The notes under the pieces are model-generated. The model did not search any database. It was given only the letters and a program-made list of their open reading frames with translations, and was not told the origin of the DNA. Positions 8,944-61,266 of a stretch of 64,000 nucleotides of DNA are shown here, piece by piece; positions within the stretch are counted from its first letter, which is position 1, and the number at the start of each line of letters is the position of its first letter. Position numbers and translations under genes: made by a program. Origin of the DNA: Amphiscolops sp. MND2022 (taxonomy: Eukaryota); assembly GCA_964187785.1 (NCBI GenBank), contig OZ076409.1, positions 16,680,001 through 16,744,000 of the forward strand, read 5' to 3'.

Positions 8944-8958
8944 TAGAAACTCTTTTTT

Positions 8959-33511: not shown

Positions 33512-33523
33512 ACCTATGATATA

Positions 33524-36500
33524 ATGGCTTATTACCCCAACAACACGGTGCCTATTTCCACGACGGGACCTCACGCCAATAGGTCTCAAGAATTGCCTGC
33601 GCGAGCGCAGAAGACTAATCAAGTCCAATATGTAGAAGAACGACTGAGGAACGGCCTCTCACCGTTAGCGGTAGCGGGCGTGGCCGCCCTACTCACTCAA
33701 CTAGACACAATGCAGACGCTGCCGGGTGTATCTGTGTCTCTGGTGACGGAAGTAGCCGGTTACCGTCGCACGCTAACCTGCCAAAACAATGCGTGGGATG
33801 GCCACGATTTGACGCACCAGTTCTTGGATGAACGTTCTACCACAATGCTCGGGCCCAGCCAGGGCACGAGATTCGAGCAAGAAGCCTCACTGTGTATGGT
33901 GCCTGCCAGCGTAGCAACGATGCCACCTCCTCAGATGGTCGCATTGCCCCCACCAGCACCAAAACCAGTACCAATGACGCCAACTTATTCCTGTTCACCT
34001 GCCTTTGGAACCTCATATCGAGCGCCACACATGGTACTGCAAACCACTACTAGTGCACCAGTCTCTGATCGAGAGCCCTCGGGGTCCCGGTTGCCACCCA
34101 TACCCAACCCAGAGCTGACGGGAAGGAGTACCAGCGAGCAGACCGTAATTGTGGCCTTGTAAGCAGTGGCCAACTATCCCAACTCCTACGATTTTGTTCG
34201 TGCCGTAGAGCAGAGAATCCCTGGACTAGCCACTTATCTGCAAGCTGCTGTTCAGCCCGCGGGCTGTGACCCTCCTGCTCCTTTAGTCGAGACGGCATCT
34301 ATGGATGTGGAAATTGCCGCTGGACCAAGCAACAGCGCAAGCGCTGCTAATGGCACACGAGAAGAAGCCGGGAGAAAGCGACTAACTGAAGAAACTGTCC
34401 CAGTTACCCCAGCTAGCTCAGTAACCGAGAGCCCGACTAGTCGTCCCCCTCCCGACAAGCGCGCTGATGTACCTCGACCCCAGCTGAAGAGTGTAGTCAT
34501 TCCTAGGCCTCCGTACCGGGTGGGTCATCTAGGCCGAAGCGCACCTCAAATGTCTTTAGCGGACGCGATCGAGCAGTATGGAGATCCGGACGCAGGCTCG
34601 GAAGTGAGCTCTGTGCCCTCGGGCACGAATCCAATAGATATGTCGCTGGAGATACCTGAGACGGTGGAGGAAGCCCGTCCTCCAGGCTTCCTCCCTCCAT
34701 CTGATGACGTATCTGGTTCAGTAGTCACCAATGATAGCAAACGCATTTGGATGGCGGCTGAGCATCTCTACCCCAGTCAATGCGCTATAAAGAAAAGGAC
34801 CCCTCCAACTGAAACGGAGCAAAAGGAGATTAACCGAACCACGATACCGGCGCAGGTCACACGTTCGCTGCGCCCCCGGGACGCAGATATGTCGGAGCAG
34901 GCCTGGGAACAGCGTGCTCGAGGCAGCTGCCTACGACAACTAACGATTACATGGCACCCCTGCAACATAATATCACCGAGCAATTCCCCGCACGGTATGT
35001 GTTGCGAGAAGGTGAGACATGGGAAGCGAACGCCCGCTACGCTCGCAATTTGAGATCTCTGAAACCACTATTGAAAGCAGCTCTGCAGCGCGCGCGCTAC
35101 TGCATGGCGGTTGATTCTACTTGCCGGAGTGACCTCCCTATTGACAATTTGATGCCTGACGTGCTGGTGCTGACTATGCCCCTGTCTCGCTTCGCTGAGG
35201 TCGCTGAGATGGTTGGAGCCATATACGATCCAAACTTAAGAGGATCACAGAAGGAACCACCCCCACAGCGCGTGATCTTTGCCAATCTTCTGGATCACAT
35301 GGCTTGCGAAGGGTTGCTGCGTGACCTGGACGCCATAATGTCCGATGTCCGACGACATTTCAGCCCTGGTAAATGAGGTGGTCGGTGCAATGGAACGTGC
35401 CGCAGGGATCCTTCGGGGTCGCCTGGGAGCGCTCGCGCTCTTTGTATCCCCACCAAGATTTATGTATTGGCCACGAAGTCTGCAGCAGTTTGTCTACATT
35501 CTGCTGGAGGTATGCAAGGCGCGCAGAGTCGAATTCGCAATCTGTGCACCAAACTTGCGTGTGGACCGAGAGGACCTGCGTCCAGATACCTTATCGTATC
35601 CAGCCTTCTTTGCCGCCGTATCTAGAGCGCTCATGGCTATAGAACGCTCGGGAAACGCCCAGCTAACCATTGACGACGCTATCCTCTGTGATCATGGAAT
35701 GCGGATGGGCAGGATGGCCTTTGACCTTGACGGCAACCGCATCGCCCGAGAGTCAAATGTGACCCAACGAGAGGCTGTTCGTCGATACAACTGGCTAGTG
35801 CGGAAGGACAAAGAAATCCCAGTGCGTGCAGAGTTCGCCGAACTGACAAAAAAATTGGTGCATGGCCTGCAGCACGCACCGTTGAAAGAACAATCCCTCA
35901 GATCCACTTCGCCTTAGGAATCGAGCCCGTGAAGCTGCCTGTAGGACTGCGGTGTATCGTGGCAATGGAAGCAACAAATCTGAAGGCAGAGGTCGACGCC
36001 GCAGCCACCACTTACGCCTATTGGTACCAGACTAGGTTTGCCACCAGAACTCTGGCAGAAGTAGCTCGAGAGCTCAATTGTCCATTGGAAGCCTTCTGTA
36101 CCAGTCTTGGTCTGGGATGGAACCTTGAAGTGCTAACTTCCGAGTTTTCGCTGACCCCTACGCAAACGGACAAGCTACTAGAAACAATTGGAGAGGCAAC
36201 TGTCGGAAAAATACTAGCGCTCGCGCTAGCGATGGGTCCAACGAAATTTGTAGCCGGACCACTAGCCCTGTTGGTCGACATCGTGATTGCCTGCGACCTC
36301 ACCGTGTTCTACAGCTACTTGGTCCTGGCACAAGGACAACTACGCAGCCTGACCCGCTGGGGACACTTGATGACCTCCAAAGACCAACAAGACTATTCCG
36401 CCCAACTGGAGCGCATGCGTGCGTCGATCCAGCACTGGCTATATTCCACCCTGGTGTTCGCCTCCGGTCTATTCGTGGGCGTGGACCAATCCCAACCACT

Positions 36501-37808
36501 ACACAACTCAGACCAGCAGATCCCACGGGAAACGGCAGGATTCCCCTTGCCGCAGCAAATTGCTGATCTCACCCTGGCTGAGGTAGAGGATTTCGTGGCA
36601 GCCATGGCCCCTATCTTTGGCGCAGTGGGCGTGTGCCGATACCCTACAAAACACTTAGCAACAGCAGTCCAAGTGCACATGGTCTCCTTTAGCACCTATC
36701 TGCGAGGCCGTCCCTCACTGGCATATCCAAGGGTAATACATGCCGTGCTGAGTGGTGAAGTGCCGCATGGGTACACGACCGTAAAATCCGAAAGAGAGTT
36801 GGAGGAGAACCTGATGGGTTTGTTGCGCGCGCGCACCAGGAAAGCATGTCCTCTGCCTCGAGAGCATGGGCCTGTGAACTGGTACTCCGCACCTCTCAGT
36901 TTGGAAGGAGTCCCCTTTAGATTCCCCTGGAGTCAAGAGTTCATAAGAAAGGCGATTCGCGCCAGCACTAGTGCTGGTCCACCTGTGGACCCTTTATACA
37001 GCTTTAAATGCATCGCCTTCCCGAATCGCTATTGGAAGGAGCCGTTAGGTTGGCCTAGGGCAAAACCCGTTGGACGCGCCCCAGAGGTTTTCAACCGTCA
37101 AATCCAACACTTGGAGTCAGCCCAGATCCCAGGATGGATTGAAGGCGCTGCTCAGATCAGGCAAAGGAATCTCCAATCCCGCGTCACCCCATTCCCCATG
37201 AAATCGGCATGGAAACCTACGGGAAAGATGACCATGTCTGGAGATATGTCCATCGTCCAGCATGATGAGATCAATTCCGTGTTGGGCTCAACAGAACGAG
37301 CAAGATGGGAAGAATACTGTCTGGAGTTGGAGATTGCTAGCTTCCTAAATGGAAGAGAGCTTGCGAGCTCTGGAGCCAACCTGGATGGATCTCACGCCGA
37401 GTCGCACTAGCAGTAGAAGGTAGAGCAGAAATAGCGAGACAACAGGCGTTCGCGCCTACCATGCTCGCACCAACGATGGCGATGTCTTTGGATCGGCCGA
37501 TCTCTCAACCGATCACCACTAACCTTCCAACCAACAACTTGGAACCAGAACCAGTTGGCCCGTCTTCATCGCGAACGAGTCCTCAGTCCTCGCAGCAGCA
37601 GTCCGGAGAGCACGCCGCCGAGTTGACTCCCAATGCAGCACTAGTGCAGCCCATTGCCGTGTTGTCGCTTCCCGAAAGTCGGTCGGACTCTGAAACAGTT
37701 GCCACAGAAGTCTCTCCCCGACGTCGAGCGTCAGTGTCGACTGATAATCCAGAACAGAACCCAGATGATGCCACTAAAGAGCGGACCCGACGCAGTTCGG
37801 CTCAATAA
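33524..37808 (+). pseudogene. ORF3 of element 1 (disrupted homologue of the 1423-aa ORF3)
   Basis: ORFs starting at 33524, 34166, 34951, 35345, 35929 and 37461 align in order to element 2 ORF3, ending in RRSSAQ* versus RHSSAQ*. Confidence 0.93.
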
Positions 37809-38574: not shown

Positions 38575-39303
38575 TGTAACGGCAAGCTCTGGTACAGCAA
38601 TATCAACCGACATGTTTAGAAATTTTGTCAAAAATTCGTTCAAATTTGACGTGGCACTCAAACATGCTCAAGACGAAGTACCTGCCAGAAAAAGAACCCC
38701 AGAAAAGCAGAAATCGCCGCTCGCGACGAACAAGCACCGGAGACGACTGAAAAGACGTCCCCAACGCATACAGAACACGGTATTGTGTCCATCTCTAGGA
38801 GATATCCATTACTACAGTAAAGGAAACCAGTGTTCCAGATGTTCGCCTGAGTATCCCTGCGGTATCCTGTGTGGCAACTAGCGCTATCGCTGGGAAGCTG
38901 AGGTCAATTTTCATCAAATGACTCTGAACTCTTGATTTCTTGTTGTATTTTTCGATGTGGTAAATTAATATGCTCGAGAGCTGTTGTTTAACATCTGTTT
39001 ATCCAATTTGGTGATTTTATCAGATTCTCCAATATTACGGTTCAACCTTCATCGATTTTCAGCCCAATTTTTAAAGGCTAGTTGAGCAGTGGTCTTGAGT
39101 CTTGCAAGATGCCTGTTACTTTTAGCAGTTACAGACTAGGACCAGGCCAGAGAGTATCCTACAAGACGGTTCCTCCACCTTGGGACTGGCTCCTTCGGAG
39201 GGAAAATGAGCTAGAGCCGCGGAGATCTAGGTCCCAGATTATATTCGCTGTTCTAGTTCCTCCACTCTACGTTGCGGTTCAAGCGCCAGCGCTTATCGTT
39301 ACA
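38575..39303 (+). repeat. 3' LTR of element 1
   Basis: Direct repeat of 8215-8943. Confidence 0.97.
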
Positions 39304-40417: not shown

Positions 40418-41132
40418 TGTAACGATAAGCACTGGCGCTTGAACCGCAACGTAGAGTGGAGGAACTAGAACAGCGAATATAATCCGGGACTTAGATCTCC
40501 GCGGCCCTAGCTCATTTTCCCTCCGAAGGAGCCAGTCCCAAGGTGGGGGAACCGTCTTGTTGGAAACTCTCTGGCCTGGTCCTAGTCTGTAACTGCTAAA
40601 AGTAACGGGCATCTTGCATGTCTCAAGACCACTGCTCAATTAGCCTTTAAAAAGGGGGCTGAAAACAGGAGAATGTTGAGCCATAGTATTGGAGAATCTG
40701 ATAAAATCGACATCAAAAAGGGTAACTACAGATGTTAAATGGGCAGCTCTCGAGCATATCAATCTACTACAACAAGGAAAGCACAATAAGCATAACAATA
40801 TCAGAAGTTCGAGTTATCTAACAGGAACGAATCGACCATGGCTTCCCAGCGCTAGCGCTCGTCACCGCACAAGACACCGCAGGATCTTCAGGCGAGCATC
40901 TGGAACACCGGTTTCTGTTACCTATGTAGTGTAAATGCCAAAGATGGGCACATCACCGTGTTCTAGGGACTGATTTCTACGTCTTCTCTTCTCGTCGTCT
41001 CTCGCGGGGGGCGATTTCTGATTTCTGATATGCTTTTTTGACAGGTCTTTCGTCTGGAGCATGTTTGAGTGCCACGTCAGATTTGAACGAATTTTTGCTT
41101 CGAAAATTTTGACATGGGCAGTTGCCGTTACA
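40418..41132 (-). repeat. 3' LTR of element 2
   Basis: Matches 58601-59315 with about 7 substitutions counted by eye; TGTAAC...GTTACA ends. Confidence 0.97.
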
Positions 41133-41905: not shown

Positions 41906-44900
41906 CTACTGGGCAGAGCTGTGTCGAGCTCGATTCTTGGAGGCATCCTCCGAAACCCCGGTTTCCTCCGACGCTATTGACGCTCTTCGCTGTGGAGATG
42001 TCACGGTAATCACTGTCTCTGAATCAAAAACGTCTTCAGGGAGTGATAATTCAGCGATCGACTGTACCAGTACGGCGTCGGGGGTTAGCTCAGCCGCATG
42101 CTCACCGGACTGTGGTTGCGACGACTGGGGACTGGTTTGTGTCGATGGTGGACTCACAGGCTCTGGCTGTAGAACATGGGTAGGCAAATCCAGAGTCACG
42201 GGCCGTTCGATGGGATGACTTAATGACATGGCCATTGTGGGTGCCAGCATGGCAGGCGCGAACGCCTGTTGTCTCTCGAGTTCAGCTCTACTCTCCACGG
42301 CCAAGGATATTCGTTTGGAGACCCAGCCAGGCTGACTCCAGAGCTCGCAAGCTCGCTTCCATTTTGGGAAGCTGGCAATCTCCAGCTCCAAGCAATATCC
42401 TTCCCACTCTGCGCGGGCTTCGGGGCCTAGCACGGAATTGATCTCATCGTGCTGGACGATGGACATATCTCCTGACATCGTCATCTTGGCCTGCGGTCTC
42501 CAGGCAGCTCTTCTAGGGAACGGAGTCACGCGTCTTTGCAGGTTCCTCTGACGAGTCTGAGCTGCTCCTTCAATCCAATTCGGAATCTGAGCCAATTCCA
42601 TATACTGGATTTGTCGATTGAAGGCTTCAGGGGCGCGACCAACGGGCTTTGCTCTGGGCCATCCCAGTGGCTCCTTCCAGTAGTGATTTGGGAAGGTGAT
42701 GCACTTGAAGGCGTACAGGGGATCTATTGGTGGACCAGCACTAGTGCTGGCACGGATCACTTTGCGTATAAACTCCTGCGACCAAGGGAATCTAAAGGGG
42801 ACTCCATTCAGGCTGAGAGGCGCGGAGTACCAGTTGACTGGGCCGTATTCTCGTGGCAAAGGGCACGCCTTTCGTGTGCGGGCACGCAACAGACCCATCA
42901 AGTTCTCTTCCAGTTGTTTCTCCGACTTCAAGGTGGTATACCCATGCGGCATCTCGCCACTCAATACGGCCTGTACGATGCGCTGATAGGTCAGTGGGGG
43001 GCGTCCTTGGAGATAGGTGCAGAAGGAGACCATGTGCACCTGCACTGCTCTCGCCAGTGGTTTGGTCGGATACCGGCACACACCGACCGCACCGAAGATT
43101 GGGGCCAGGACGGAAGCCATAACGGCCACGAAGTCCTCCACTTCGGCCAGAGTCAAATCGGCGATTTGCTGGGGCATAGGAAATCCCGCCGTTTCCGCAG
43201 GGAGTTGACGCTCGGAATTGTGGAGGGGTTGCGACTGATCCACGCCTACGAACAAGCCAGAGGCGAACACTAGGGTGGAATACAACCAATGTTGGAGGGA
43301 CGCACGCATGCGTTCCAGCTGGGTGACATAATCTTGTTGGTCCTTGGAATTTAGGAGGTGACCCCATCGAGTTAGGCTGCGTAGCTGTCCCTGCGAGAGG
43401 ATCAGGTAGCTGTAAAAGGTGACTAGATCACTGGATACTACCAGCTCGACTAACATAGCCAGGGGACCTGCCACAAACTTTGTCGGGCCCATGGTTAGCG
43501 CGAGCGCTAACATCTCTCCTACAGTAGTTTCGCCGATGGTTTCCAACAATTTGTCAGTCTGCACATTGGTGAGCAAGAACTCAGAGGCTATTACATCGAT
43601 GTTCCAGCCTAGTCCGAGACTGGTGCAAAAGGCTTCCAAGGGACAGTTAAGCTCTTGAGCTACCTCGGCCAAGGTTCTGTCCACGAATCTGGACTGATAC
43701 CATTCGGCATACGTTAATCCGGCGGCATCTACTTCAGTCTTCAAGTTGGTCGCCTCCACAGCCACGACGTGCCTCATGCCCACGGGCAACTTGACAGGCT
43801 CTATTCCCGCGGCAAACCGAATTTGGGGAATGGTCCTTTCGACCGTGCGTGTGGCAGGCCATGTTTCAATTTCCTTCACGAGCTCTGCCAGCTCTGTTCG
43901 TACGGGAATCTCTTTGTCTTTCCGCACCAGCCAGTTATAGCGTCGAACGGCCTCTCGCTCACTCATGTTAGATGCTCGCATGACGCGATTCCCGTCCAAG
44001 TCGAAGGCCATTCGCCCCATACACATTCCATGGTCGAACAGTATGGCATCGTCGATAGTCAGTTGTGCATTTCCCGATCGCTCCACAGTGATTAGCACTC
44101 TTGATACAGCAGCAAAGAAGGCAGGGTATGACAATGCATCGGGGCGTAGGTCTCCGCGATCAACCCGAAGATTTGGCGCACATATAGCAAACTCGATTCG
44201 GCGCGCCTTGCATACCTCAGACAAGATGTACACAAACTGCTGCAAGCTTCGTTGCCAATACATGAATCCCGGCGGGGATGTGAAGAGCGCGAGCGCTCCC
44301 AGACGACCTCGAAGGATCCCTGCTGCACGCTCCATTGCATCTGCAACCACGTTTATTAAGGGCGCCACATTCCCAGGTCTACGGGTATCTGCCATGAGGG
44401 CATCCAGGTTGTGTAGCAGTCCTTCACAAGCCATGTGGTCGATCAAGTTGGTGAAGACTACACGTCGCGGGGGTGGCTCTCTTAGGGACCCTCTCAGGTT
44501 TGGGTCGTACATAACCGCGACCATCTCTGCGAATTCGGCGAAGCGGGAGAGTGGCATTGTTAACACCAGCACATCGGGCAGAAGGTTATCGATAGGCAGA
44601 TCACTCTTGCATGTCGAATCTACCGCTACACAATAGCGCGCACGCTGCAGAGCTGCTTTCAAGAGGGGCTTCATTGACCTGATATTGCGAGCGTAGCGGG
44701 CGTTTGCTTCCCAGGTTTCTCCTTCGCGCAATATGTACCTGGCGGGAAATTGCTCGGTGAGGTCGTGCTGCAGGCGAGCCATGTAGTTGTTGGGTGTGGC
44801 GGGCAGTTGCTCTCGAGCACGCTGTTCCCAGGCTTGCTCACTTAGGTCCGCATCACGGGCACGTAGCGATCGAGTTATTTGAGCCGCAATGGTGATTCTG

Positions 44901-46177
44901 CTCACCTCTCTTTGCTCGGCGTCCGACGGCGGTGCTCTCCTTCTAATCGCACATGTGTTCGGGTGCAAACACTCTGCTGCCATCCAGATGCGTTTACTAT
45001 CGCTAGTTACCACGGAGCCGGATACATCATCTGACGGGGGAAGAAAGGCGGGAGGACTGGTCTCTTCGACTGTCTCGGGCACCTCCAGGGACATGTTGGC
45101 AGAGCCTGTGCCCACGGGCACAGGATTCGTTTCAGGATTCGCATCCACACTGCCGTAGCGGTTAATGGCCTCTTCCATGGACATTTGAGGCGCGCCTACG
45201 CCCAGGTGGCCGACGCGATATGGAGGCCTCACGACCACTACACTCTTCATTTGCGATTGCTGGGGTACATCTGCTCGCTTGTCCGGAGGGGGACGACTGG
45301 TCGGACTTTCGGTCACGGAATTATTGCGTGTAGCGACGATATTTTCCTCAGTAAGTCGCTTCCGTCCAGTTTCCTCACGGGGATATGTTATAGCGCTGGT
45401 GTTTGGTCCAGCCGTGGTTTCTGCTTCCATAGACACAGCTTCGGCTAGGGTGGTGGGTGGGGTGACACAGCCCGAGGGCTGAGCTGCGGCTTGCAAATAG
45501 TGTGCCAATCCGGGAATCCTTTGCTCAACTGCACGAACGAAGTCAGAGGAGTTGGGGTAGTTGGCGACCGCCTGCAGGGCCACAATCACCGCTTGCTCGC
45601 TGGCACTCCGTCCGGTAAGATTTAGATTAGGCACTGATGGCAGTTGGGACCCCGAGGGCTCCCGACTTGAGGCTGATTGATTGGTAGTGTTTTGCGTCAT
45701 CGTTGCCTGGGTTCCATATGGTGCCCCATAAGCAAGTGAGCTAGAATACGGCGTCATCTGCACTGGATTCGGTGCCGTGATAGAAGGCAGCGATGGGACG
45801 TTGACGGGCATCATACGCAGTGATGCTTCTTGTTCGAATCTGGTGCCCTGGCTGGGGCCATGCACTGTGATTGATCTTTCGTCCAAGAACTGGTGAGTCA
45901 GGTCGTACCCATCCCAGGCATTGTTGGTGCACGTCAAGGTGCGACGATAGCCTGCCACCTCCGTAGTGATCGACAAGGATGCATTTGGCAGCATTTGCAT
46001 CGATTCAAGCTGGGTCAGTAAGGCAGCCACCCCAGCTACGGCTACTGGCGAAAGACCATCCCGCAGCCTCTCTTCGACATATTGGGCCTGATTGACCCTC
46101 TGCGCTCGCGCAGATTCCTGGGGCCTTGCACTACTAGACCCTGTTGCAGGCGCTGAACTGTTTGGGCAATGGGCCAT
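41906..46177 (-). CDS. ORF3, 1423 aa, non-env accessory protein with an SGNH-hydrolase-like central domain
   Basis: Uninterrupted ATG-initiated ORF between pol and the 3' LTR, conserved at protein level with element 1. No signal peptide or C-terminal membrane anchor seen. Confidence 0.93.
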   Translation of the reverse strand: MAHCPNSSAPATGSSSARPQESARAQRVNQAQYVEERLRDGLSPVAVAGVAALLTQLESMQMLPNASLSITTEVAGYRRTLTCTNNAWDGYDLTHQFLDERSITVHGPSQGTRFEQEASLRMMPVNVPSLPSITAPNPVQMTPYSSSLAYGAPYGTQATMTQNTTNQSASSREPSGSQLPSVPNLNLTGRSASEQAVIVALQAVANYPNSSDFVRAVEQRIPGLAHYLQAAAQPSGCVTPPTTLAEAVSMEAETTAGPNTSAITYPREETGRKRLTEENIVATRNNSVTESPTSRPPPDKRADVPQQSQMKSVVVVRPPYRVGHLGVGAPQMSMEEAINRYGSVDANPETNPVPVGTGSANMSLEVPETVEETSPPAFLPPSDDVSGSVVTSDSKRIWMAAECLHPNTCAIRRRAPPSDAEQREVSRITIAAQITRSLRARDADLSEQAWEQRAREQLPATPNNYMARLQHDLTEQFPARYILREGETWEANARYARNIRSMKPLLKAALQRARYCVAVDSTCKSDLPIDNLLPDVLVLTMPLSRFAEFAEMVAVMYDPNLRGSLREPPPRRVVFTNLIDHMACEGLLHNLDALMADTRRPGNVAPLINVVADAMERAAGILRGRLGALALFTSPPGFMYWQRSLQQFVYILSEVCKARRIEFAICAPNLRVDRGDLRPDALSYPAFFAAVSRVLITVERSGNAQLTIDDAILFDHGMCMGRMAFDLDGNRVMRASNMSEREAVRRYNWLVRKDKEIPVRTELAELVKEIETWPATRTVERTIPQIRFAAGIEPVKLPVGMRHVVAVEATNLKTEVDAAGLTYAEWYQSRFVDRTLAEVAQELNCPLEAFCTSLGLGWNIDVIASEFLLTNVQTDKLLETIGETTVGEMLALALTMGPTKFVAGPLAMLVELVVSSDLVTFYSYLILSQGQLRSLTRWGHLLNSKDQQDYVTQLERMRASLQHWLYSTLVFASGLFVGVDQSQPLHNSERQLPAETAGFPMPQQIADLTLAEVEDFVAVMASVLAPIFGAVGVCRYPTKPLARAVQVHMVSFCTYLQGRPPLTYQRIVQAVLSGEMPHGYTTLKSEKQLEENLMGLLRARTRKACPLPREYGPVNWYSAPLSLNGVPFRFPWSQEFIRKVIRASTSAGPPIDPLYAFKCITFPNHYWKEPLGWPRAKPVGRAPEAFNRQIQYMELAQIPNWIEGAAQTRQRNLQRRVTPFPRRAAWRPQAKMTMSGDMSIVQHDEINSVLGPEARAEWEGYCLELEIASFPKWKRACELWSQPGWVSKRISLAVESRAELERQQAFAPAMLAPTMAMSLSHPIERPVTLDLPTHVLQPEPVSPPSTQTSPQSSQPQSGEHAAELTPDAVLVQSIAELSLPEDVFDSETVITVTSPQRRASIASEETGVSEDASKNRARHSSAQ

Positions 46178-46472
46178 TAATGCATAGGTCTAAAAAGGAC
46201 CACTGTTAGGCTTACAGGGGCAAGTTCTTTCTGGAGCGAGCCGTGGGCCGGTTCGTCCCTCAATTGCAGCAATGCAACATCGGCTCCGTAAGGGGGCCAC
46301 TACAAACTTAAAATTTAACTCTAACTAACTAACGAACTAGAACAAAACCTTTGAGTAAACAGCATGACAAATTAACATTTCGAGAGCATTTCAAGACTCT
46401 TCCATGGTTGTTACAAGAATTGTTACAAAGACTGAGGGCAAAGGGAAAATGGGGACAACTAAAATGATAAGG

Positions 46473-49400
46473 CTACTCCAGCCCTATAGTTAATATTGAT
46501 ACATATACGCGGCTATGCAAAACCACGCGAATACCAGTACCCTCGAACATGTTCGTTAGAGTATGGTACAGATTGACCAACGAGAAAGCCGGTCTCTCGG
46601 GGTCCAGAATGGGTAAGTGGACCCGTGTGGATCCTTTGTCTATCAGGCGCTGTATCAAGTACGTCATGCAGCGCAGGTAGTCATCGGTCAGCAGCGGTGC
46701 GCGCTGGTTAGCACGGACTATTAACAGGTGAATACTTTGATTAGGGTTGGGGTTCACATCAGGCGGGATAGTGAGAATCTCGCCCACTTTAGGTCGTAAG
46801 GCAAATACATCTTCTATGCCGCACTCCCGCAGCACATATCGCAAGGCGGCAGAGTTGGTCTTTAGGTCAGCAGGGCATGCTAACACTATGTCGCCCTCGG
46901 CCTGCAAAAAATCAGATTCATCGTAAGAAACATGTTCGGCGGAATTCGGATACAGGGCTCCCGGGTAAACAATCTCTCGTCCGGGACCATTGTTGGAGGG
47001 CAGACACACGCGATGCGTACGCCCTTGGACTGCAGCCAGGTCTTGCCACACTGAGCGGGGCATCGCTCGATTGTCGCTGCCGGCCTTTACCCACGCATCT
47101 AAAGTTCCCAGGGCGGCTTTGGGGAACAGGGGGATCTCGAAAGTGTGAGTCCACTCATCTAACAGTCGAATTCTGGGATAGGTGGCGAAACACGTGATAA
47201 TTAATTCCAGCCACCATGCAAACTTCACCTTGCCTCGGTACCAGTCTATGATATGGAAGCAAAGTATTAAGTCCACAGTGGTGAGGGTCCTCAGACTCTC
47301 TAGACAGGATAACAGATTCAACGGTTCCACCATCGCCTCCACTCGTGGAGCTGTTACCAGCAGCCACCAGTGAGGAGCCGGGCTGTATACCCCTCCTGGT
47401 TCCACCTGGACTCCATACTTATCGCATAACAAGTCGGCAGTGATGCATCGGGCCATCTGCACAGGTTCCCTTTCAAAATTGAATGGTCCAAACGCAATAT
47501 TGCTGGGCACAGGGGGCAACACCGTGGGCAGGGTAAACTCCAGGCCCTTTCCATCGCTAGTCCACTCCTTAAACCTAGGACAAGGGGCCTTCGCTACCCC
47601 GGGCAGTGACAACTTCTCCAGGATAGTGTCTACAGGGTGGTCTCCGGACCGCTCTACAGCTGAGTAGGTTTTCTCGGCCCGCACCGTGAGGCGGTACACC
47701 AAGTTTTCTCTCTCTTCCGGAGGAACTCCCCGGGCTCCAATGGGAACCCTCCGGTTCTCATTCACAGCTAATAGGCAGACACAATCTCGCAGCCCGCAGG
47801 TTCCACACTTGTAGCGCGGCTGCCGTTTACTCCTTAGTTGATACCTAAGAGCAGTTGCAGATGCCTCTGTTAGCGTCTCTGCAGTTCTGGGAGCTTCCGT
47901 TTCGGCCTGGATTGCAGTTTCGGTTTCGACATTTCTCGGTGTTTCTTTCTTCCTCGTCCTTGCTTTCGCTCGGATCAGCCGTTTCTTCTGTGCCTTGGGT
48001 GTTCTCCCCCTCCCCCTTTTGAAAGAAGGAGCGGTCCCCGCTCCTGGCGAAGTCTCGGGAACTTCAGGCAGATCGGGCTGAACGTTGCTGTCGCTGCTGG
48101 CAGATTTGAGAGGAATCGGAGGGGCGGTCGGCCATATGGGATAGTTACTAAGGAAATTGGTTAGCGAGGGGTTCGTCAACAAGGATGCTGAGGTTCCTGG
48201 TAACGATGTTTCTTTTTCGGAGGAGGATATCTGTGGAGACGGTGAGCGCACGCGCTCATGGTCAGAGAACAGTTGAGGTAGTACACGGGCGGGGGATATC
48301 GACTGATCCAACGCAGCCGGAGGAGCCGCAGGCTCCACTAGATCCTCGTCAACTGGATTAGGAGGTATCGGCAACATGGCATCGGATAGTTCGTCATCTG
48401 TACCCGAGGTGGAATAGTCAAATTGCTGATAATGCGGGCGGGAGCCGCCTGCGCGAAGTTTCGTGCGTAGTCGAGTGTCCATCCAGTGACGTCGACGTGA
48501 GGGCAAAGATGCATCGGACGCTTCTGAAAGTAGTTGTTCAGGTTTATACGACGATAAAGACTTATCGTCATCAACTACGTCGACGGAACGTTCAGGTTCG
48601 GGGTCCATAAGTACCACCACCTCACCACTGTCCGTGTGTGCAGTAGCAAGTTCAAGTGGGCCACTGTGGTGCGGTTTAAGACGCTCAAAATGAACCTTTT
48701 GACCTGTGTCTAGTACATAGACACGACCGTCCTGAAAGACTTGTACAACCTTGTGCGGGCCTCGCCAAGCACGCATCAATTTCGGGGAACCCTTTTGCGG
48801 TACGTAGCGGCAAAAAACCCAGACGAGCTCGCCTACTTGGTAAGCTCGCGCTTGTATAGCACGGTCGTACTTTAACTTTTGACGCAATTGGGCTTGGTGC
48901 GTGTTACGCCGTACCAAGTCATGTATTTCCTGCTCGCGAGCCAATACATGATCGACATACGCCTCATGCGACTCGAATGGTTTGGCTGCAAATTCGGGAT
49001 ACAAAAACGTGAGAGGGATGGCCTTCTCTACACCACGGGTCAGCATGTAGGGTGAGAAGCCAGTGGTGGCGTGCCTCGTAGAGTTGTAGGCGCCCATGAC
49101 CTCATCAAGACATTGGTCCCAGTCGCGCATACGGCGGGAGCAAAAAACTCGCAGTAGGGTTAATAATGTCCGGTTTTGACGCTCCACCAAGCCTTGGGTT
49201 CTCGGATGGCTAGCCGTAGAGGTTACTTTGGTAACGTGGGCTGCTTTTAGGAATTCGTTGGATACCTCAGCAGTCAAATTTGGAGCATTGTCAGACTGCA
49301 TTCGAGTGGGTGTGCCATGACGGGCGAACCACTTTTGCAGCAGCAACCGAGAGGTGGTCACAGCGTCGTAGTCGTGATGACTATAGGGAACTGCTTCCGC

Positions 49401-52400
49401 GAACTTGGAGAAATGGTCAATTATGACCAAGATGCCAGTGTTATTACTGTCTGAGGGGCAGATCTTCAGGTGATCATATTGGACCAATTCGTTGAAGTAC
49501 CCGCTCTGGATGTTCTTTAGGTGGAATCGGACGTCACCAGGCTTATCTCGAACCTGTTGACAGGTGAGGCATTGGCCAACGTAACGGCCCACGCTGCGTC
49601 GAATACCAGGCCATGTGTGACGTTCTTGAATCCGAGCCACCACTTTGGAGATACCTTGATGTCCCATGGCGTCATGCGCACGGAATAAAATCTCATGCTG
49701 GTACAGTTGAGGCATGACGATCATGCACGGGCGTTCGTGCAGGGGACGTTGGTTGGGAGGGTATCGTACGCAAAGCACACCATTCTTGTTAATGAACAGG
49801 AGAGTTTTCTTCTGACGGTAGTAGTTGCGTGCGAACTCACGCACGTTCTCGGGAAACACGTCATGATCGATGGGTTCGTTTAGCACCAACTTTTTGAGTG
49901 CTAGCACATGAACATCACGGTTTTGGGCTAGGATCAAGTCTTTGATACCATGCACGGTGTGAGCATGTTCGTGAAGTTCAGTGTTGATGTCTTTAAGAGC
50001 CATAATTGAGTCGCGTACACCCGAGGGAGTACCTTGCAACGCAACAGGATTCGCCCCAGCAATAGCATAGACGGTACGTGAAGATACATTTACGGCATGC
50101 GTCGGTAATAGATAATCTTCGCGTGCTTCATCAGTGACATCAATCCAGTCCTCAGGGTAGTCTGGATAGGCATCCTCGTGCGGTTGCAGAGCAAGGGAAG
50201 GCGGAGGCGGCAAGGGTGCTGCGAATGCTTTCGCTTGTCTGTCTCTCCTGCTCGCTCGTTTTGTGCGGCGAAGCACGCGTAGCAATTGGTTGGGAGCCTT
50301 AGGCTCCAAGTTCTGCAGGTGCGCAGGTAGTTCGGGATGATTCGGGATGACTCGACCCTGAAGGTCGAACCATGGGGCAACAGGTAGTTTATCAAATTCG
50401 TCAGCTGAAAGGAAATTCCAGCGTTCTCCCGCGGCTGGCTGCTGTGCAAGCTGTTTCTCTCGGCATCGGTACTCGTTGGTTCGTTTGCTCAAGCCATCGG
50501 CGTTTCGATGTTGAGTTCTTGGGCGGTGTTCCACGCGAAAGTGATAATTCTCCAGGGTCATAATCCATCGGCCGATTAGCGCTTGATCCGTGGAGTAGGT
50601 TTTCAACCAGGACAAGGCTTGGTTGTCCACCCGCAGGGTGAATTTCCGGGGACATAAATAGCTGTGGTTTTTCACTATGAAATAGTAGGCGGCGAACATT
50701 TCAAGTTTGGGAGCTCCGTATTTAGCTTGTGTGGTAGTGAGCTTCTTGCTGCCGTAAACTATCGGCCTCAGGCGTCGTTCACCCGGAGGACCTTGCCACT
50801 GGTGCAGGATACCAGAAATGGCGACAGCACTAGCGTCAGTGTCCAACACAAACTCTCCTTCGGAATCAGGCTGCGCGAGCGCAGTTGCCTCGATCAGGGC
50901 TTTTTTGATTTCATTGAATGCGGTTTGTTGCTCAGGACCCCATGCGAAGGTGGCATTCAGTCCAGTGACGGCGTGCAGGGGTGCAACCAGCTTAGCGTGC
51001 CAAGGGATGAATTCGCGATAGTAATTGGCGAATCCAAGGAAGCTCTGCATCTCCGTCTTGTTACGGGGAATTTCCCAATCGCGCAACTTGACGACGGCTT
51101 TCGGGTCGGGCTTCACTCCTTCTGCGGAAACCACTCGTCCCAAGTACTTGATCTCCGATTTCATGAAATCGCATTTGGCCACGCGCATTTTGAAACCGGC
51201 TTTACGGAGGCATTCAAAGACTTCACGTAGGCGTACCATATGGTCTTCCACAGTCTCTGTGGCAATCACGATATCATCAATGTAGGCCATGACCATGCTG
51301 CCCTCACGATTGACAATATTCCTTAGCGCACGCGCTATTGATCGCTGAAACGTGGCAGATGCATTGCACATACCAAATGGCATTCGCCGCCACTCAAAAA
51401 GTCCTAGTTCACAAGCAAAAGCGGTTTTGTGGCGATCCGCCTTTCGCACAGGAATTTGCCAAAAGGCCCAAGCAAGGTCTATGCTGGTATAAATCTTCGC
51501 CTTGCCTAGCCGTGCCAGGCTTTCATCAATACGGGGCAAGGGATAGGCATCCTTAATGGTTACCTCATTTAACGGGCGGAAGTCGCAGCAAAAGCGCAAC
51601 TCCCCGTTTTTCTTTTTCACCATTACAATGCCGCTCGCCCAAGGGGACAGCGAGGGCTGTATCATTCCCAGAGCTAAGAGGTTCCGCAACTCCTGATTGG
51701 CACGTTCGGCCTTCTCAGGGGACATCCGGCGAGCACCTTCGCGATGTGGTACAGCCCCTGGTTCCACCTCTACGGTGTGCTTAGCGATAGTGCACCGACC
51801 GATGTCAGCCTTGTGTTTCATGAATAGCTCATCGAATTCATCGAGGAGGTTACTGAGAGACTCGCAGGCGCTAGCGCCCCATAAATCCTTAACCGCCTGT
51901 AACTGAGATTCTGGCCCAGGAATCGGAGCCATTAGCTCTGGGTCCGTACGCTTGCGAATTTCGCGCTCCGATAGTCCTGCCTCGCTAGGGTCAGTTGAGG
52001 ACAAAAACTCAAATTCTGAAGAAGAGGTTAACTCAGAAGCAGTGGACAGATTCACTTCACTATAAATTTTATGAACAAAATTTGCACGACTGTCGTCGGC
52101 GTCAGTTTTTGTGCGGGTTGTTGTGGGAGAGTCCAGACACTGAGGTACTGCTTGGTATACTACCGTTATGGGTACTACGGTGCCCAGTTGTACACCACAC
52201 CGCATGCGTTGAGGGTTGCTGGTGAGATTTATCAGGCTCACAAAGAGTGTCCCTGTCTCACTGACAGTGGCCACGCTGTCCTCTAAAAAGACGACATTAT
52301 GCAACGTAGTGTCAGACAAAGAGGCATTGAGCGCTACGCTTTGAAAAATCAGCGGCTCTAGTGCATTGGTGACGAGCTTTGCTCTAGCCACCGCACGTTC

Positions 52401-53660
52401 GAAAGGTTGCAGAACCAAGTCACTATCCAAAACGACTGGGGTAGCTATCGAAGTGTCACCTACCTGTGCGTGAGCATGATGCCACACAGGCTTCACTGGT
52501 GCTCGCACCACAATCTTCATAGATGTTAGATCCACTAACACCTGGTAGGAGCGGAGAAAGTTCCGACCCAGTAGGAAGTCTTCCACACCCATTGCGTCAT
52601 CTACCACCACAAAGTTCGTTTCAAGTTCATATCCTCCCAGCTGGAAATGGATATGTTCTGCGAGGCCGTAGGTCTTTATTGTCTTCCCGTTGGCTGCGTA
52701 CAGGTCAACTTGGTAGGGTTTAAGGACCGTTCCAGTTCGAGCTGCCACTCTGTTAAAGGCGGAAAACGTCAGTATGGAGACGCCCGAGCCAGTGTCCACC
52801 AGTCCTCGCAGCGGGATAGGTGTTGCATGAGGCACCACGAAAGAGACCACGAGCGACGCACGCTCATCTATACGCGCTTCACCGGTGGGCTCCTGATGAT
52901 TGATGTTATAGGCTCCTGAGGACCCAGACAAATGCCAGGGGGAAATACATCCACCACCACACAGGCTTCGAACTTCACTTCCACTCCATCCATTGAAGCA
53001 CAGACTGGCACTGGGGAATATGTTGTCAGAGTCGTAGACTCTCCCGGAGCGTACCATTCTTTCGGTCGAGGCAACTCGTTTCGTTTGTAGAGGATAGACA
53101 GTTCGACCCATAGCTTCGCCAGGGTTAGCGTCGGCCTACGCGTTTGCTCAGCTGCCAGCAACAGGTGAATCGAAATCAGCGTCCGTCCTTGCGGGTCGAA
53201 CGTCGTGGGTTCCAAGCAGGTCTGAACTTGCTTAGCACCACAAGTGAATGTCATCGGAGTGTGGAACGCAGGCGGTTCCGCCGGATGTAGCATCAACACA
53301 CGGTCATCTTCCAAAGGTACGGTGTGCGCGGCGATGCCAGCTGATTCGACCTCAGCCCATAGATTGTAGGCTAACTCGTCACTGGGCTTCGGCGCATGGG
53401 AGTGCTCACCACATTGCACTTCCGCCTGATCGAAAAGTCCACAGCTCGTGCATTGATAGATCCCCGGATGACCTTCAAGGATGCCATCGGTCGCGTCTTC
53501 CGTGGTGACCTTTACGCCCTCTGGTTCGGAGGCAGTCATTGGTTTTCGGGCTTGGTCACGATTGGGGCACTCGCGAGCAAAATGTCCGTTTTGCCCACAG
53601 TGAAAACAAGCACCTACCGGCGCTCGGGCGGGAGCTAGGACAGCGGGAGCTGGGACATTT
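46473..53660 (-). pseudogene. pol: Gag C-terminus plus pol of element 2 (PR-like, PR, RT, RH, IN, two macrodomain-like units); one frameshift near 52915
   Basis: DTG, YIDD, RNase H DAS/ELE/DN, HHCC, D-D-E (YDH, SDN, VER) and GPH motifs intact. A 7-bp deletion relative to element 1 at PQE(LKC)YN joins ORF 52868-53539 to ORF 46473-53111. Confidence 0.95.
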
Positions 53661-55922
53661 GGGGGGGGGGGGCGCCGGAGATGGCAAGACGCCCTGCGGC
53701 ATGACCATCTTGTTCGGCGGCAGTGGTGCGAAAGGATGAGGTCTAGACCTCATGGCTAATCTGGGATCATAGGGTTGTTGAGGTTGGGTGGGTCTGGGAC
53801 GATTTCGTTGCAGCTGACGCGTGGTAAATCGCAAGGACTCTACGGTAGGGGGTTCGGTAAGAAAAGTCTCCGAGGCGTATACTATGGCAAGTTCACGCCT
53901 CAACACTGGATCTCGCACACCTTCCATGAAGCGCTGCAAGATTTCACAGCGTTTGGTAATGATACTTTCTTGCGGGAATCCTTGGCTCCTGAGACCCTCT
54001 AAAGCGTCTAAGTACTGCATCCAGTCCTCTTTTTCTTGTTGGACGCGGCTTTGGAAGGTCTGCCGCACCTGCATACGATTTCCTCCCGCGCCAAATCGGC
54101 TACTAGATAGCAACTCGAACACCTTCTCGGGGGTGTCACGTTCAGACTCTGCCTTGTTGATGATGTAGTTGCGAGCCTCACCTTCGAGGTGACCGATAAT
54201 GCTCCAGGCCCGATCTTCGGCCGAGATTTTGGTTTGGATTCTCTTCAAGTATCGCTGCATTACTAGGATCCAGCCATCAATAGACCCGTCCTTAGAGCCT
54301 CGATACACGCTGGGTTTGGTTTGAGCCAGGTCACGTCCCGCAAGTAACGGTGCCAGTTCTTTGGACATTGCTTTGGAAATGGCGGCAGTGAACCTCAATT
54401 GCTCAGGAGAGATGACTTCAGCCTCTCCTTCCTTGGGTGCCACATCATCAGTACCGTCGTCACTGCCATGCGTAGCTCGCACTGAGAGGTTCGTCACGTC
54501 TTCTTTCCTGCGAGTGCTACTCGCGCAAGGAGCGCCCGAGGGCATTCCGTCCTCGGCTGTCCAGTCGGCGGTCAGATACAGGGAGTCCGTTCCAAAAGCC
54601 ATGGTAGGGGCCGTCGCATACGCAGCTCCATCAGTCTGGGACCCTAGTGTGGCCTTGGTACAGGATAAATCAACTTCGGTAGAAGTATCTAGATAGATAG
54701 GTGACATTGGGTCCACACCTTGGTCTCGGGTGGCACTTCGAACTACGTAGGAGGTTGTTTGACTCATCGACGAGGAGTCGTGGGGCCCTCTCACCTGCAC
54801 CCGTGCAGGTTTACGCTCCACATCAGGCATGATGAGTACGGGATCCTTGGTTCGGGTTTCAGGCGTCGTCGACTTGGAGGTGCTAGGCTTCAATGCACTC
54901 GCCAGCTCGGGTTTCGTTGCCCGACCCAGGTGCGATGATTCCGGAATCTTAATTGAATCCGCGACTGGCACACCTTCAGTGGCACCAGATTGTCGTGGGA
55001 GGGACCTCTCGCGCCTCATGATGTTGATAGCATTGAGCACAGTGTGCATTTGGTTACTCAAATCATTGATCTGGGTTTCCACACGAAGTTCACGGGCCAT
55101 CAAAAGGTCATTCATCTCACCCATTCTGTGGCCTAGTGCATCTACGCGAGCACTCTGCGTATTCTGCGCGGTTCGCAGTTGATCACTGACCTGCAATCCT
55201 TCTCGCATCGTTGTCTGCAACGTTCTCATATTTTCTGCGATGGCACGATGTTGGTCATTGCACCCAGCACGAGTGCTAGCCAGTTCAGCTAAGGCACGTT
55301 GGGTCTCAGCTTGGGCTTCCAATATTGCGGCTTTATACACCGAAGATCGTTGGGATGATGCCACTGAACCTGCCACGCTCCTCGTACGAGGCTCCTCAAA
55401 CTGACGTTCACCTACATTTATCATGGGTGGTCGCACTCTCTTGTGTTTGCCATAGGCACAAACTCTAGTGTTACCTCGAGCGACTCCAGACCCCTGCGGT
55501 CTCGCACAACTCGTGTTCCCCGTGTAGGTAAGATCCTCGTCCACCGTGATCTGTAGGCGGGAGCTCGTCTTCTCTCCTAGGGGTGCGCGAGAGCACCCTT
55601 CCTCAGCTGCAAGTTCGTTGGTCATGTTCGAGTTGGGCCACTCCTCTTCTGCTTCATTGGTTCTTTCACGACAGGTTTCATCGACCCATTGCTCGGTTCG
55701 ACGAGAGCTTCCAGATGCAACGGAACCCTCAGAGGGAGGGACCATGGCGGCCAATTCCTCTTTGCGTTGTTGCTCGATAGTGACTTCGTCAGACATTTCG
55801 TCTGAAAAATGCGAACCGTCCATTGTGGATCCTATGGTCACCCATGACTGCGAACTCATGTCAAGCTTTTCCAGGCCTGGTAGGACCATTACATACGATG
55901 CCAATGGCAGAGCAGGTGTCAA
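53556..55922 (-). CDS. gag: gag of element 2; frame breaks in the homopolymer at ~53661-53672
   Basis: Homologous to element 1 Gag. The CCHC knuckle CFHCGQNGHFAREC lies in the shifted frame after the G/C run. Confidence 0.9.
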   Translation of the reverse strand: MTPALPLASYVMVLPGLEKLDMSSQSWVTIGSTMDGSHFSDEMSDEVTIEQQRKEELAAMVPPSEGSVASGSSRRTEQWVDETCRERTNEAEEEWPNSNMTNELAAEEGCSRAPLGEKTSSRLQITVDEDLTYTGNTSCARPQGSGVARGNTRVCAYGKHKRVRPPMINVGERQFEEPRTRSVAGSVASSQRSSVYKAAILEAQAETQRALAELASTRAGCNDQHRAIAENMRTLQTTMREGLQVSDQLRTAQNTQSARVDALGHRMGEMNDLLMARELRVETQINDLSNQMHTVLNAINIMRRERSLPRQSGATEGVPVADSIKIPESSHLGRATKPELASALKPSTSKSTTPETRTKDPVLIMPDVERKPARVQVRGPHDSSSMSQTTSYVVRSATRDQGVDPMSPIYLDTSTEVDLSCTKATLGSQTDGAAYATAPTMAFGTDSLYLTADWTAEDGMPSGAPCASSTRRKEDVTNLSVRATHGSDDGTDDVAPKEGEAEVISPEQLRFTAAISKAMSKELAPLLAGRDLAQTKPSVYRGSKDGSIDGWILVMQRYLKRIQTKISAEDRAWSIIGHLEGEARNYIINKAESERDTPEKVFELLSSSRFGAGGNRMQVRQTFQSRVQQEKEDWMQYLDALEGLRSQGFPQESIITKRCEILQRFMEGVRDPVLRRELAIVYASETFLTEPPTVESLRFTTRQLQRNRPRPTQPQQPYDPRLAMRSRPHPFAPLPPNKMVMPQGVLPSPAPPPPKCPSSRCPSSRPSAGRCLFSLWAKRTFCSRVPQS

Positions 55923-58565: not shown

Positions 58566-58585
58566 CGATCCCTCTGTGGTCGCCA
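58566..58585 (-). promoter_or_regulatory. Primer binding site of element 2
   Basis: TGGCGACCACAGAGGGATCG on the minus strand, 15 nt from the LTR end. Confidence 0.75.
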
Positions 58586-58600
58586 AAAAATGAGGTTCTA

Positions 58601-59315
58601 TGTAACGATAAGCGCTGGCGCTTGAACCGCAACGTAGAGTGGAGGAACTAGAACAGCGAATATAAGCCGGGACTTAGATCTCCGCGGCCCTAGCTCATTT
58701 TCCCTCCGAAGGAGCCAGTCCCAAGGTGGGGGAACCGTCTTGTTGGAAACTCTCTGGCCTGGTCCTAGTCTGTAACTGCTAAAAGTAACGGGCATCTTGC
58801 ATGTCTCAAGACCACTGCTCAATTAGCCTTTAAAAAGGGGGCTGAAAACAGAAGAATGTTGAGCCATAGTATTGGAGAATCTGATAAAATCGACATCAAA
58901 AAGGGTAACTACAGATGTTAAATGGGCAGCTCTCGAGCATATCAATCTACTACAACAAGGAAAGCACAATAAGCATAACAATATCAGAAGTTCGAGTTAT
59001 CTAACAGGAACGAATCGACCATGGCTTCCCAGCGCTAGCGCTCGTCACCGCACAGGACACCGCAGGATCTTCAGGCGAGCATCTGGAACACCGGTTTCTG
59101 TTACCTATGTAGTGTAAATGCCAAAGATGGGCACATCACCGTGTTCTAGGGACTGATTTCTACGTCTTCTCTTCTCGTCGTCTCTCGCGGGGGGCGATTT
59201 CTGATTTCTGATATGCTTTTTTGACAGGTCTTTCGTCTGGAGCAAGTTTGAGTGCCACGTCAGATTTGAACGAATTTTTGTTTCGAAAATTTTGACGTGG
59301 GCAGTTGCCGTTACA
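58601..59315 (-). repeat. 5' LTR of element 2
   Basis: Direct repeat of 40418-41132; adjacent to the PBS. Confidence 0.97.
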
Positions 59316-59763: not shown

Positions 59764-61266
59764 TAAAAACATAGGCGCAACTGCCATTGCGCGACGGCTC
59801 CGAGCAGACGACCTCTTTGAGAGAGCCCAGGAGTAATGGGTTCTACGGAAGTGCGCCCAAGCACCCCCAATTGCATGGGGTACGTCAAAAAACACTTCGC
59901 AAAAAAGTTCGCAAAATTTCCAAAATTTTTCCAATTTTTAGTCGCCATTTTCTCAACGACCAATGATCGTAGAATGATGAAACTTTCATGAGCTTAGAGA
60001 AGACATCTTCTCGCGTCAGTCGATACTACTTATGAGCCGTTTCGATTTGTTTAAGTAGTAAAATTAAGCAAAATCTACATTTAGAAAATTTTTTCGGAAA
60101 ACTTCCAAAATTTTTCCAATTTTTAGTCGCCATTTTCTCAACGACCAATAATCGTAGGATGATGAAACTTTCATGAGCTTAGAGAAGACATCCTCTCACG
60201 TCAGTCGATACTAATTATGAGCCGTTTCCATTTGTTTAAGTAGTAAAATTAAGCAAAATCGACATTTAGAAAGTTTTTCCGGGAAAATTCCAAAATTTTT
60301 CCAATTTTTAGTCGCCATTTTCTCAACGACCAATGATCGTAGGATGATGAAACTTTCATGAGCTTAGAGAAGACATCCTCTCACGTCAGTCAATACTAAT
60401 TATGAGCCGTTTCAATTTGTTTAAGTAGTAAAATTAAGCAAAATCGACATTTAGAAAATTTTTTCGCAAAAAACTCCAAAATTTTTCCAATTTTTATTCG
60501 CCAATTTCTCAACGACCAATAATCGTAGGATGATGAAACTTTCCTGAGCTTAGAGAAGACATCCTCTCGTGTCAGTCGGTACTAATTATGAGCCGTTTCA
60601 ATTTGTTTAAGTAGTAAAATTAAGCAAAATCGACATTTAGAAAATTTTTTCGCAAAAAACTCCAAAATTTTTCCAATTTTTATTCGCCAATTTCTCAACG
60701 ACCAATAATCGTAGGATGATGAAACTTTCCTGAGCTTAGAGAAGACATCCTCTCGTGTCAGTCGGTTTTAATTATGAGCCGTTTCAATTTGTTTAAGTAG
60801 TAAAATTAAGCAAAATCTACATTTAGAAAATTTTTTCGAAAAAAAACCCAAAGTTTTTCCAATTTTTTTCGCCATTTTCTCAACGCCCAGTATCTGTAAA
60901 ATAATGAAAATTTCACGACCTTAAAGAAGACATCCTCTTGCGTCAGTTGGTACCCATTTGAGACGGTTCGATATGGTTCAAGTGGAAAAATTACGCAAAA
61001 TCGGAAAAAACCCTAAAAATTTTCGCAAAAATCATGTTTTCGAAGCTAATATAATCGCCCAGGCGGAAAATTTTCGGAACCTTCTTACATGGCCAGAAAG
61101 GGCATTCACTTGCGGATCTATTTTTGAAATTTTGAATTGTCTCGGAGAAATAGGCTTGGAGAAAAATAGCCGAAACTTTTACAAATGCAGAGGGATGTCA
61201 CGTTTTGGCGAAAAAAAAACTAAACGCAAACAATAAGGCCCCTCGCTTCGCTCGTCGCCTTAAAAA
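59764..61266. mobile_element. Putative Helentron-associated (DINE-1/HINE-like) non-autonomous element
   Basis: Hairpin GCGCAA-CTGCCA-TTGCGC near the left end, central tandem array, and GGCCCCTCGCTTCGCTCGTCGCC at the right end; A/T-rich flanks. Confidence 0.5.
59920..61000 (+). repeat. Tandem array, ~185-bp unit, between 5 and 6 copies
   Basis: TCGCCAwTTTCTCAACG recurs near 59942, 60127, 60312, 60498, 60684 and 60869. Confidence 0.95.

Follow-up and report, generated by a model that had tools for sequence, protein, structure and literature searches.

A non-env ORF3 with a putative pseudo-SGNH domain in a Ty3/gypsy lineage of Amphiscolops sp. MND2022

The systems closest to the gene discussed here, the third open reading frame (ORF3) of a long terminal repeat (LTR) retrotransposon in Amphiscolops sp. 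MND2022 (contig OZ076409.1, positions 16,680,001 to 16,744,000, a stretch of 64,000 nucleotides hereafter called the window), are the bdelloid Vesta LTR retrotransposons, whose ORF3 of about 1.3 kb encodes a GDSL esterase with intact S-G-N-H residues and no transmembrane (TM) segment (PMC5408684). As in Vesta, for which a membrane role was proposed, a predicted SGNH/GDSL domain appears here in a separate ORF3 after pol, replacing env; unlike in Vesta, this ORF3 is 4.3 kb long, has no His at the catalytic position and is multidomain, with a helical domain and also a hydrophobic segment. The same paper describes retroelement-borne GDSL derivatives without catalytic residues in Athena-L Terminons, which, unlike our LTR element, are Penelope-like elements and are likened to it by description only. 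The SGNH fold is also carried by the ORF1p esterases of ZfL2-1, CR1, L2 and RTEX elements, and in ZfL2-1 membrane binding is independent of catalysis (PMC3905857); unlike ORF3, proteins of the ZfL2-1 type are active enzymes and belong to non-LTR ORF1, behind a coiled coil. The OSK domain of Oskar (5a4a; PMC5785220) has the fold without catalytic residues, as ORF3 appears to, but it is part of a host germ-plasm RNA-binding protein and is structurally no closer to ORF3 than other SGNH proteins are.

Two other likenesses concern the element. CERV of the C. elegans Cer1 (PMC10309623) is an LTR-element accessory protein made from spliced RNA, as we infer for ORF3; its function is RNA export, and the two are likened by description only. 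Burro and Ogre (PMC6431247) are giant gypsy elements, likewise large and with extra coding capacity, but their domain sets differ from ours and the env homology of Burro lies within the polyprotein. In the literature searched (partial coverage, supplements excluded) only PMC5408684 reports SGNH in an LTR-element ORF3, and no description of a large multidomain pseudo-SGNH ORF3 protein was found. New in comparison with known systems are the size of ORF3, the ancient loss of His, the extra domains and the copy number; the novelty is lowered because a GDSL ORF3 in Vesta and a dead GDSL in Athena-L were already described. We hold with good confidence that ORF3 has a selected, non-env, pseudo-SGNH architecture.

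The ORF3 gene, its element and its relatives

ORF3 is an intact ATG-to-stop frame of 1423 amino acids (aa) on the minus strand, from 46177 to 41906, and the plus-strand reading of the same interval has many stops. It starts 295 nt downstream of the end of pol in an 18,898-nt minus-strand element (element 2), which bears out the original prediction, made from the sequence alone, of an intact frame of this length in the env position. Element 2 belongs to Ty3/gypsy by its paired LTRs ending in TG...CA (715 nt each, 708/715 identical) and by a gag placed before protease, reverse transcriptase (RT), RNase H and integrase, in this order according to Pfam. A diverged plus-strand element of the window (element 1) has its LTRs at 8215-8943 and 38575-39303.

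58601..59315, minus strand: 5' LTR of element 2 (LTR comparison)
53556..55889, minus strand: gag, 777 aa (weak PNMA match in Pfam; homologous frames in families D and E, see below)
46473..53111, minus strand: pol with protease, RT, RNase H, integrase and a long C-terminal extension (Pfam)
46178..46215, minus strand: splice-acceptor-like signal made up of CTAAC, a pyrimidine run and AG; its end is 12 nt upstream of the ATG of ORF3
41906..46177, minus strand: ORF3 (open frame; dN/dS 0.067 against element 1)
40418..41132, minus strand: 3' LTR of element 2 (LTR comparison)
33524..37805, plus strand: frame-shifted ORF3 of element 1 (tblastn; breaks near codons 455, 600, 770 and 1270)

Conservation of ORF3 between the two elements, also claimed in the original prediction, is confirmed: element 1 has the homologous gene, 66-82% identical to that of element 2 by tblastn, in five frame-shifted pieces. 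The ratio of nonsynonymous to synonymous divergence (dN/dS) between the elements is 0.067 over the 1338 codons compared in ORF3 (bootstrap 0.035-0.090). The SGNH part taken separately has 0.048, pol has 0.052 and gag 0.115; since dS is 1.4-2.3, near saturation, and four sub-regions have no finite dS, these ratios are approximate. By this measure, which had been suggested as a check, ORF3 is under strong purifying selection and not an unconstrained gene.

In the genome assembly of 1.07 Gb, a search for the SGNH domain gave 2975 candidates, of which the best 150 share 96-100% identity with it, and dozens have open frames of 1420-1431 codons. Among the ORF3-bearing families (A to E), A, D and E each have at least 128-150 near-identical copies, with at least 150 in family D and at least 128 in family E. 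The ORF3 core of family D is 42% identical and its pol 60-68%, the corresponding values for family E being 27-36% and 58-60%; both families keep the gag-pol-ORF3 order, which was read between LTRs in two copies of each. Family C is older and decayed. Several ORF3-bearing families are young, with LTRs 99-100% identical, and very abundant. Such youth and abundance, together with a second degenerate module in the same elements (a macrodomain-like Pol end), would suit a decoy or scaffold protein whose dead fold binds a host ligand or protein and so counters host defence, be it the Piwi-interacting RNA (piRNA) pathway or an innate one. We find this explanation quite unlikely, as the strong purifying selection does not resemble an arms race and no host partner was identified.

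When 1.84 billion representatives were searched with a profile, 606 matched at E<=0.001, and the most distant among the best 150 of them are 24-35% identical; P0269, a full-length relative of 1187 aa, is one of these distant matches. Because strict thresholds gave no close match in this genome for two relative lineages (P0278 and P0181), the ORF3 gene likely occurs in other species. No relatives were found in the JGI metagenome or IMG/VR contigs searched, and the NCBI label 'Bacteroidota' of P0224, which belongs to an 816-nt contig, was not accepted as a sign of a bacterial home.

The 38-nt acceptor-like stretch ahead of ORF3 is identical to element 1 at 31/38 positions, versus 123/248 across the rest of the spacer. 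A pyrimidine run with AG precedes ORF3 in families D and E too, and the acceptor-like signal is present in four families. Because this signal is conserved, ORF3 is likely translated from a spliced subgenomic RNA; two low-depth contig runs contained neither splice joints nor expression evidence. The start of ORF3 is overlapped in both elements, as TAATG, by a two-codon mini-frame ATG NNN TAA (46175-46185, minus; 33516-33526, plus).

The predicted SGNH fold and its catalytic residues

44072..44647, minus strand: pseudo-SGNH domain, residues 511-702 (AlphaFold model, VIA-align, residue counts; dN/dS 0.048)
Within it, minus strand: SGNH landmarks D520-S521, block II at 542-544, N577-x-x-D580, PPG at 635-637, and R678-P679 at the His position

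The six SGNH-block peptides named in the original prediction are all present (residues 515-695, nt 44635-44093), but those of blocks IV and V taken alone do not go beyond chance. An AlphaFold model of residues 400-1300 (mean confidence score, pLDDT, 49; residues 535-665 mostly 55-88) was aligned with VIA-align to 48,161 PDB representatives. About 44 of the top 50 matches are SGNH proteins, including the first 22 rows, and all of these cover residues 511-702 (Z 5.0-6.7, root-mean-square deviation 3.5-5.7 A, 126-167 aligned residues); 11 of the roughly 44 are titled GDSL or SGNH, and the others we take to be SGNH. A second structural alignment agrees. The block I pattern, a hydrophobic strand with D-S and 22 residues to block II, has the same spacing as S143-G165 of ZfL2-1.

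Several observations weigh against this reading. The best SGNH Z of 6.7 (root-mean-square deviation 3.6-5 A, 128-167 aligned residues) lies under the Z of 8 below which the tool advises caution, the first non-SGNH row follows with a Z of 5.7, and a designed scaffold heads the second alignment. The strand of D520-S521 has pLDDT of 25-41 and many structural rows align only from residue ~533, so that the register of block I rests on the sequence pattern. In two sets of proteins, 0/65 and 0/9 matched an SGNH family of Pfam (PF13472, PF00657; elsewhere in the same genome these families match 39 and 17 places, respectively), protein and profile searches of PDB sequences with ORF3 gave nothing significant, and profile comparison with the canonical SGNH domains of this genome was non-significant, its best hhalign registration placing the DST strand on GDS. 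Foldseek with the 901-aa ORF3 model gave no match at E<=0.001. One could then suggest that the domain is unrelated to SGNH and resembles it through a common alpha/beta arrangement, given that Z stays below 8, that STAS and enolase-like rows come within roughly one Z unit and that sequence searches lend no support; an unbroken run of 22 SGNH-type rows at the head of 48,161 chains, with motif order and spacing in agreement, makes this highly improbable. It is the enrichment among structural matches, and not the Z, that carries the model-based SGNH assignment. We assign residues 511-702 with moderate confidence to the SGNH hydrolase fold, a three-layer, flavodoxin-like alpha/beta arrangement, as the original prediction proposed.

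Canonical SGNH esterases are borne by other retroelements of the same genome. Non-LTR elements (L039, L040, L043) have an intact one in ORF1, followed by an endonuclease-like ORF2, and their esterases were not matched by the ORF3 profile. In a distant gypsy family (L031-L038, L042, L052-L053) with RT about 35% identical, an intact canonical SGNH esterase is fused after integrase, and an env-like frame with a signal-like start and a hydrophobic end lies downstream.

Within close families D520 is kept in 41/43 sequences, S521 in 43/43, N577 in 46/47, D580 in 47/47, H581 in 46/47 and R678 in 49/51; with 71/196 domain positions (36%) common to all close families, a further point against our reading, such invariance is weak evidence. 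The distant set comprises 12 sequences from about six lineages, which are not independent. Here D520 and S521 are kept in 8/8, N577 and D580 in 11/11 and PPG in 11/12, and the R678 position holds Arg in 10/11 and Cys in one, His being found there in neither close nor distant sequences. H581 is kept in 7/11 and is Asp or Tyr in 4/11; D676 is kept in 0/11, and the position three before R678 is variable. In a register set by the sequence pattern, position 543 of block II is Leu, His or Cys, with Gly only in the P0269 lineage, and position 579 of block III is hydrophobic, Asn being replaced. The block V D-x-x-H, block II Gly and block III Asn of active SGNH enzymes are thus absent; the block I nucleophile S521 is invariant, though it lies in a poorly modelled strand. 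The DxxHP-like block with Arg for His, as originally predicted, is right as to the Arg, but the Asp is not at -3 and is lost in distant relatives. Replacement of the catalytic His by Arg throughout relatives of 24-35% identity agrees with the catalytically dead domain proposed there.

An enzyme of unusual chemistry, using Ser with H581 or R678, for instance a slow acyl-transferase or lipase, would account for the invariance of D520, S521, N577 and D580 even in distant relatives and for H581 in 46/47 close sequences. We think it very unlikely: most sequences have other residues in place of the Gly of block II and the Asn of block III, no conserved Asp stands three before R678, and in ZfL2-1 the H282S change abolishes hydrolysis (PMC3905857). 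A Ser-His581 dyad in particular was ranked low, H581 being lost in 4/11 distant sequences. Because Arg occupies the His position in 49/51 close and 10/11 distant sequences, the catalytic function was likely lost long ago, and because only Ser and Arg persist of a site that has lost His, the Asp of the triad and both oxyanion residues (Gly and Asn), we infer an old pseudo-enzyme with a retained pocket. Such a dead domain can keep a membrane function, since liposome binding of ZfL2-1 is unaffected by active-site mutations (PMC3905857).

Other parts of the protein and a possible role

45770..46132, minus strand: conserved N-terminal island, residues ~16-136 (36-39% identity to family E; aligned with family D)
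45038..45727, minus strand: Pro/Ser/Thr-rich acidic linker, residues 151-380 (31% P+S+T, net -6; dN/dS 0.16)
43259..43813, minus strand: all-alpha domain, residues 789-973 (AlphaFold pLDDT ~80-96; acidic)
43076..43132, minus strand: hydrophobic proline-kinked segment, residues 1016-1034, then RYP (hydropathy, conservation)
42278..42907, minus strand: C-terminal region of basic charge (net +11), residues 1091-1300, modelled with low confidence

The linker is likely disordered. Residues 789-973 form an all-alpha fold in the AlphaFold model, which was built from 94 sequences, and their net charge is -5 to -8 in four families. A model of residues 780-1175 was matched by no PDB or BFVD entry in Foldseek at E<=0.001, and its best VIA-align Z was 3.0 among the 48,161 chains; for a predicted structure, these null searches neither name the fold nor prove its novelty. 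The most conserved part of the core is 971-1090, with 54/120 positions shared. It includes the hydrophobic 19-mer, with a mean Kyte-Doolittle hydropathy of 2.28 (at least 1.6 in 43/49 covering rows), which is kept down to 24% identity, is present in P0269 and P0232, has two to three prolines in several families and is modelled with pLDDT of 44-58. Residues 1091-1300 are net +11 in families A and D and less basic in B and C, where they were measured together with tails. No internal repeats and no likeness to the element's own Gag or Pol were found in ORF3 by sequence comparison.

Hallmarks of env are absent. Across the first 40 residues of three full-length relatives (P0001, P0002, P0022), the highest Kyte-Doolittle mean over 9 residues is -0.27 to 0.24, with no h-region of a signal peptide; motif and hydropathy scans of ORF3 found neither an R-x-K/R-R furin site nor a terminal TM anchor. 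Structure searches listed no match to a viral fusion protein for residues 400-1300 (PDB) and 780-1175 (PDB, BFVD). The non-env character claimed for ORF3 is upheld, as is the absence of a signal peptide and terminal anchor, though the conserved internal segment 1016-1034 had been overlooked, along with the splice-acceptor-like signal and the Vesta and Athena-L precedents. A non-canonical envelope or cell-cell fusogen would fit the env position, the env-like splice acceptor ahead and the single hydrophobic segment, and env-independent spread is known from sORF2 elements (10.1101/2025.03.14.642691). This is the least probable of the explanations we weighed: besides the missing hallmarks, sORF2 and FAST proteins are short and single-pass transmembrane, while ORF3 has 1423 aa and several domains, and in several families two to three prolines interrupt its hydrophobic segment.

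A possible role of segment 1016-1034, going by its sequence, is that of a monotopic membrane anchor or a buried helix. We suggest, tentatively and at somewhat less than even chances, that ORF3 is a non-catalytic SGNH adaptor by which the element's ribonucleoprotein (RNP) or particle is tethered to a membrane on its cytoplasmic side. In this mechanism ORF3 would be an accessory gene of a large Ty3/gypsy lineage, made from spliced RNA, in which the His-less SGNH domain would serve as a non-catalytic binding module and its pocket (S521, R678) might still hold an anionic lipid head or an acyl group. The segment 1016-1034 would anchor the protein monotopically, the basic C-terminal region would contact RNA or Gag, and the RNP or particle would so be tethered to the cytoplasmic membrane face, which might help particles to assemble or to reach germ-line or stem cells. 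Two points tell against the adaptor: the hydrophobic segment may be no more than a helix buried in the protein, and the SGNH domain is near neutral (net 0 to +3) and so gives no positive sign of anionic-lipid or RNA binding.

ORF3 might instead be an RNA-binding regulator, its dead SGNH domain binding the element's own unspliced RNA in an OSK-like manner and aiding nuclear export, localisation or packaging, as CERV does. OSK, which binds RNA without catalytic residues (PMC5785220), is among the structural matches (rank 18, Z 5.8, tied with other SGNH rows), CERV comes from a spliced mRNA and is required for export of the Cer1 genomic RNA (PMC10309623), and the acceptor-like signal, a genomic RNA of about 18 kb with a 2.7-kb leader and the basic C-terminal region would all fit. 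We consider this unlikely, albeit worth serious thought, since the SGNH part is not strongly basic, the ZfL2-1 esterase did not bind oligo-A RNA (PMC3905857), and the conserved hydrophobic segment would be left unexplained.

Further features of the lineage and significance

The usual target-site duplication of LTR elements is 4-6 bp. Here it is 3 bp in 8/8 testable family A pairs (10 fetched, L057-L076; 7 independent, two sharing flanks), and in none of the eight does the match extend to 4 or 5 bp. Element 1 (8215/39303), two copies of family D and one of family E (L054/L056, L049/L051; L097/L099) have 3-bp duplications too; the flanks of element 2 are unmatched (AGA / ATG), and L100/L102 is ambiguous. 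This is a deviation from a typical Ty3/gypsy trait and no ground to exclude the lineage from the superfamily. Nothing relevant on 3-bp duplications in LTR elements was found in the literature searched, and a high-copy family of this kind would be missed by tools that assume 4-6 bp.

46509-46742, minus strand: degenerate macrodomain-like end of the pol extension (by profile, weakly similar to the intact macrodomain that another gypsy family carries)

That family (L091-L093) has an intact macrodomain fused after integrase, presumably of the TARG1/Poa1p-like type. The Pol end matches it at E 2e-4 in a small local set over 84 ungapped columns and is without its conserved motifs; from the sequence, it is likely a second dead module of the element. 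Pol residues 1761-2040 (47000-47830, minus) are conserved, with dN/dS of 0.036, and start with a Cys-rich CGTCGLRDCVC motif. At the gag/pol junction (52868-53560, minus) element 2 has separate frames with a 223-codon ORF between them, unlike families D and E, in which frames continue past gag into protease; frameshifts at this point are possible in element 2. The untranslated leader of 2.7 kb (55890-58600, minus), with a 181-nt tandem repeat, is about 85% conserved between elements 1 and 2. In families A, B, D and E a primer-site-like TGGCG motif stands about 15 nt inside the 5' LTR end and not directly beside it (in the window at 58570-58600, minus, and 8944-8975, plus). Element 1 has an AT-rich, repeat-rich insert of about 12 kb between gag and pol (14326-26500), a 185-186-nt tandem repeat array lies beside the 5' LTR of element 2 (59900-60941), and a single-exon-like frame with ASC, LDLa and CUB domains is found at 2723-3928 (minus).

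Taking these traits together, one may speculate, and we would rate it as improbable in its full extent, that a gypsy lineage turned a captured esterase into an ancient pseudo-enzyme fused to a helical domain of undescribed fold and a monotopic anchor; this would be a new class of accessory protein, docking particles on membranes and moving them between cells without Env, in the same lineage that has a 3-bp stagger and a second dead module, the macrodomain, on Pol. The well-predicted helical domain is a candidate for structure determination. The wider question addressed is why unrelated retroelement classes repeatedly capture SGNH esterases, as an enzyme or as a membrane handle. The pol-like constraint on this domain without its catalytic His, across relatives of 24-35% identity, argues that selection preserves binding rather than hydrolysis, and ORF3 would offer a naturally inactive counterpart to the active proteins of ZfL2-1 and Vesta and to the intact SGNH-bearing gypsy family of the same genome.

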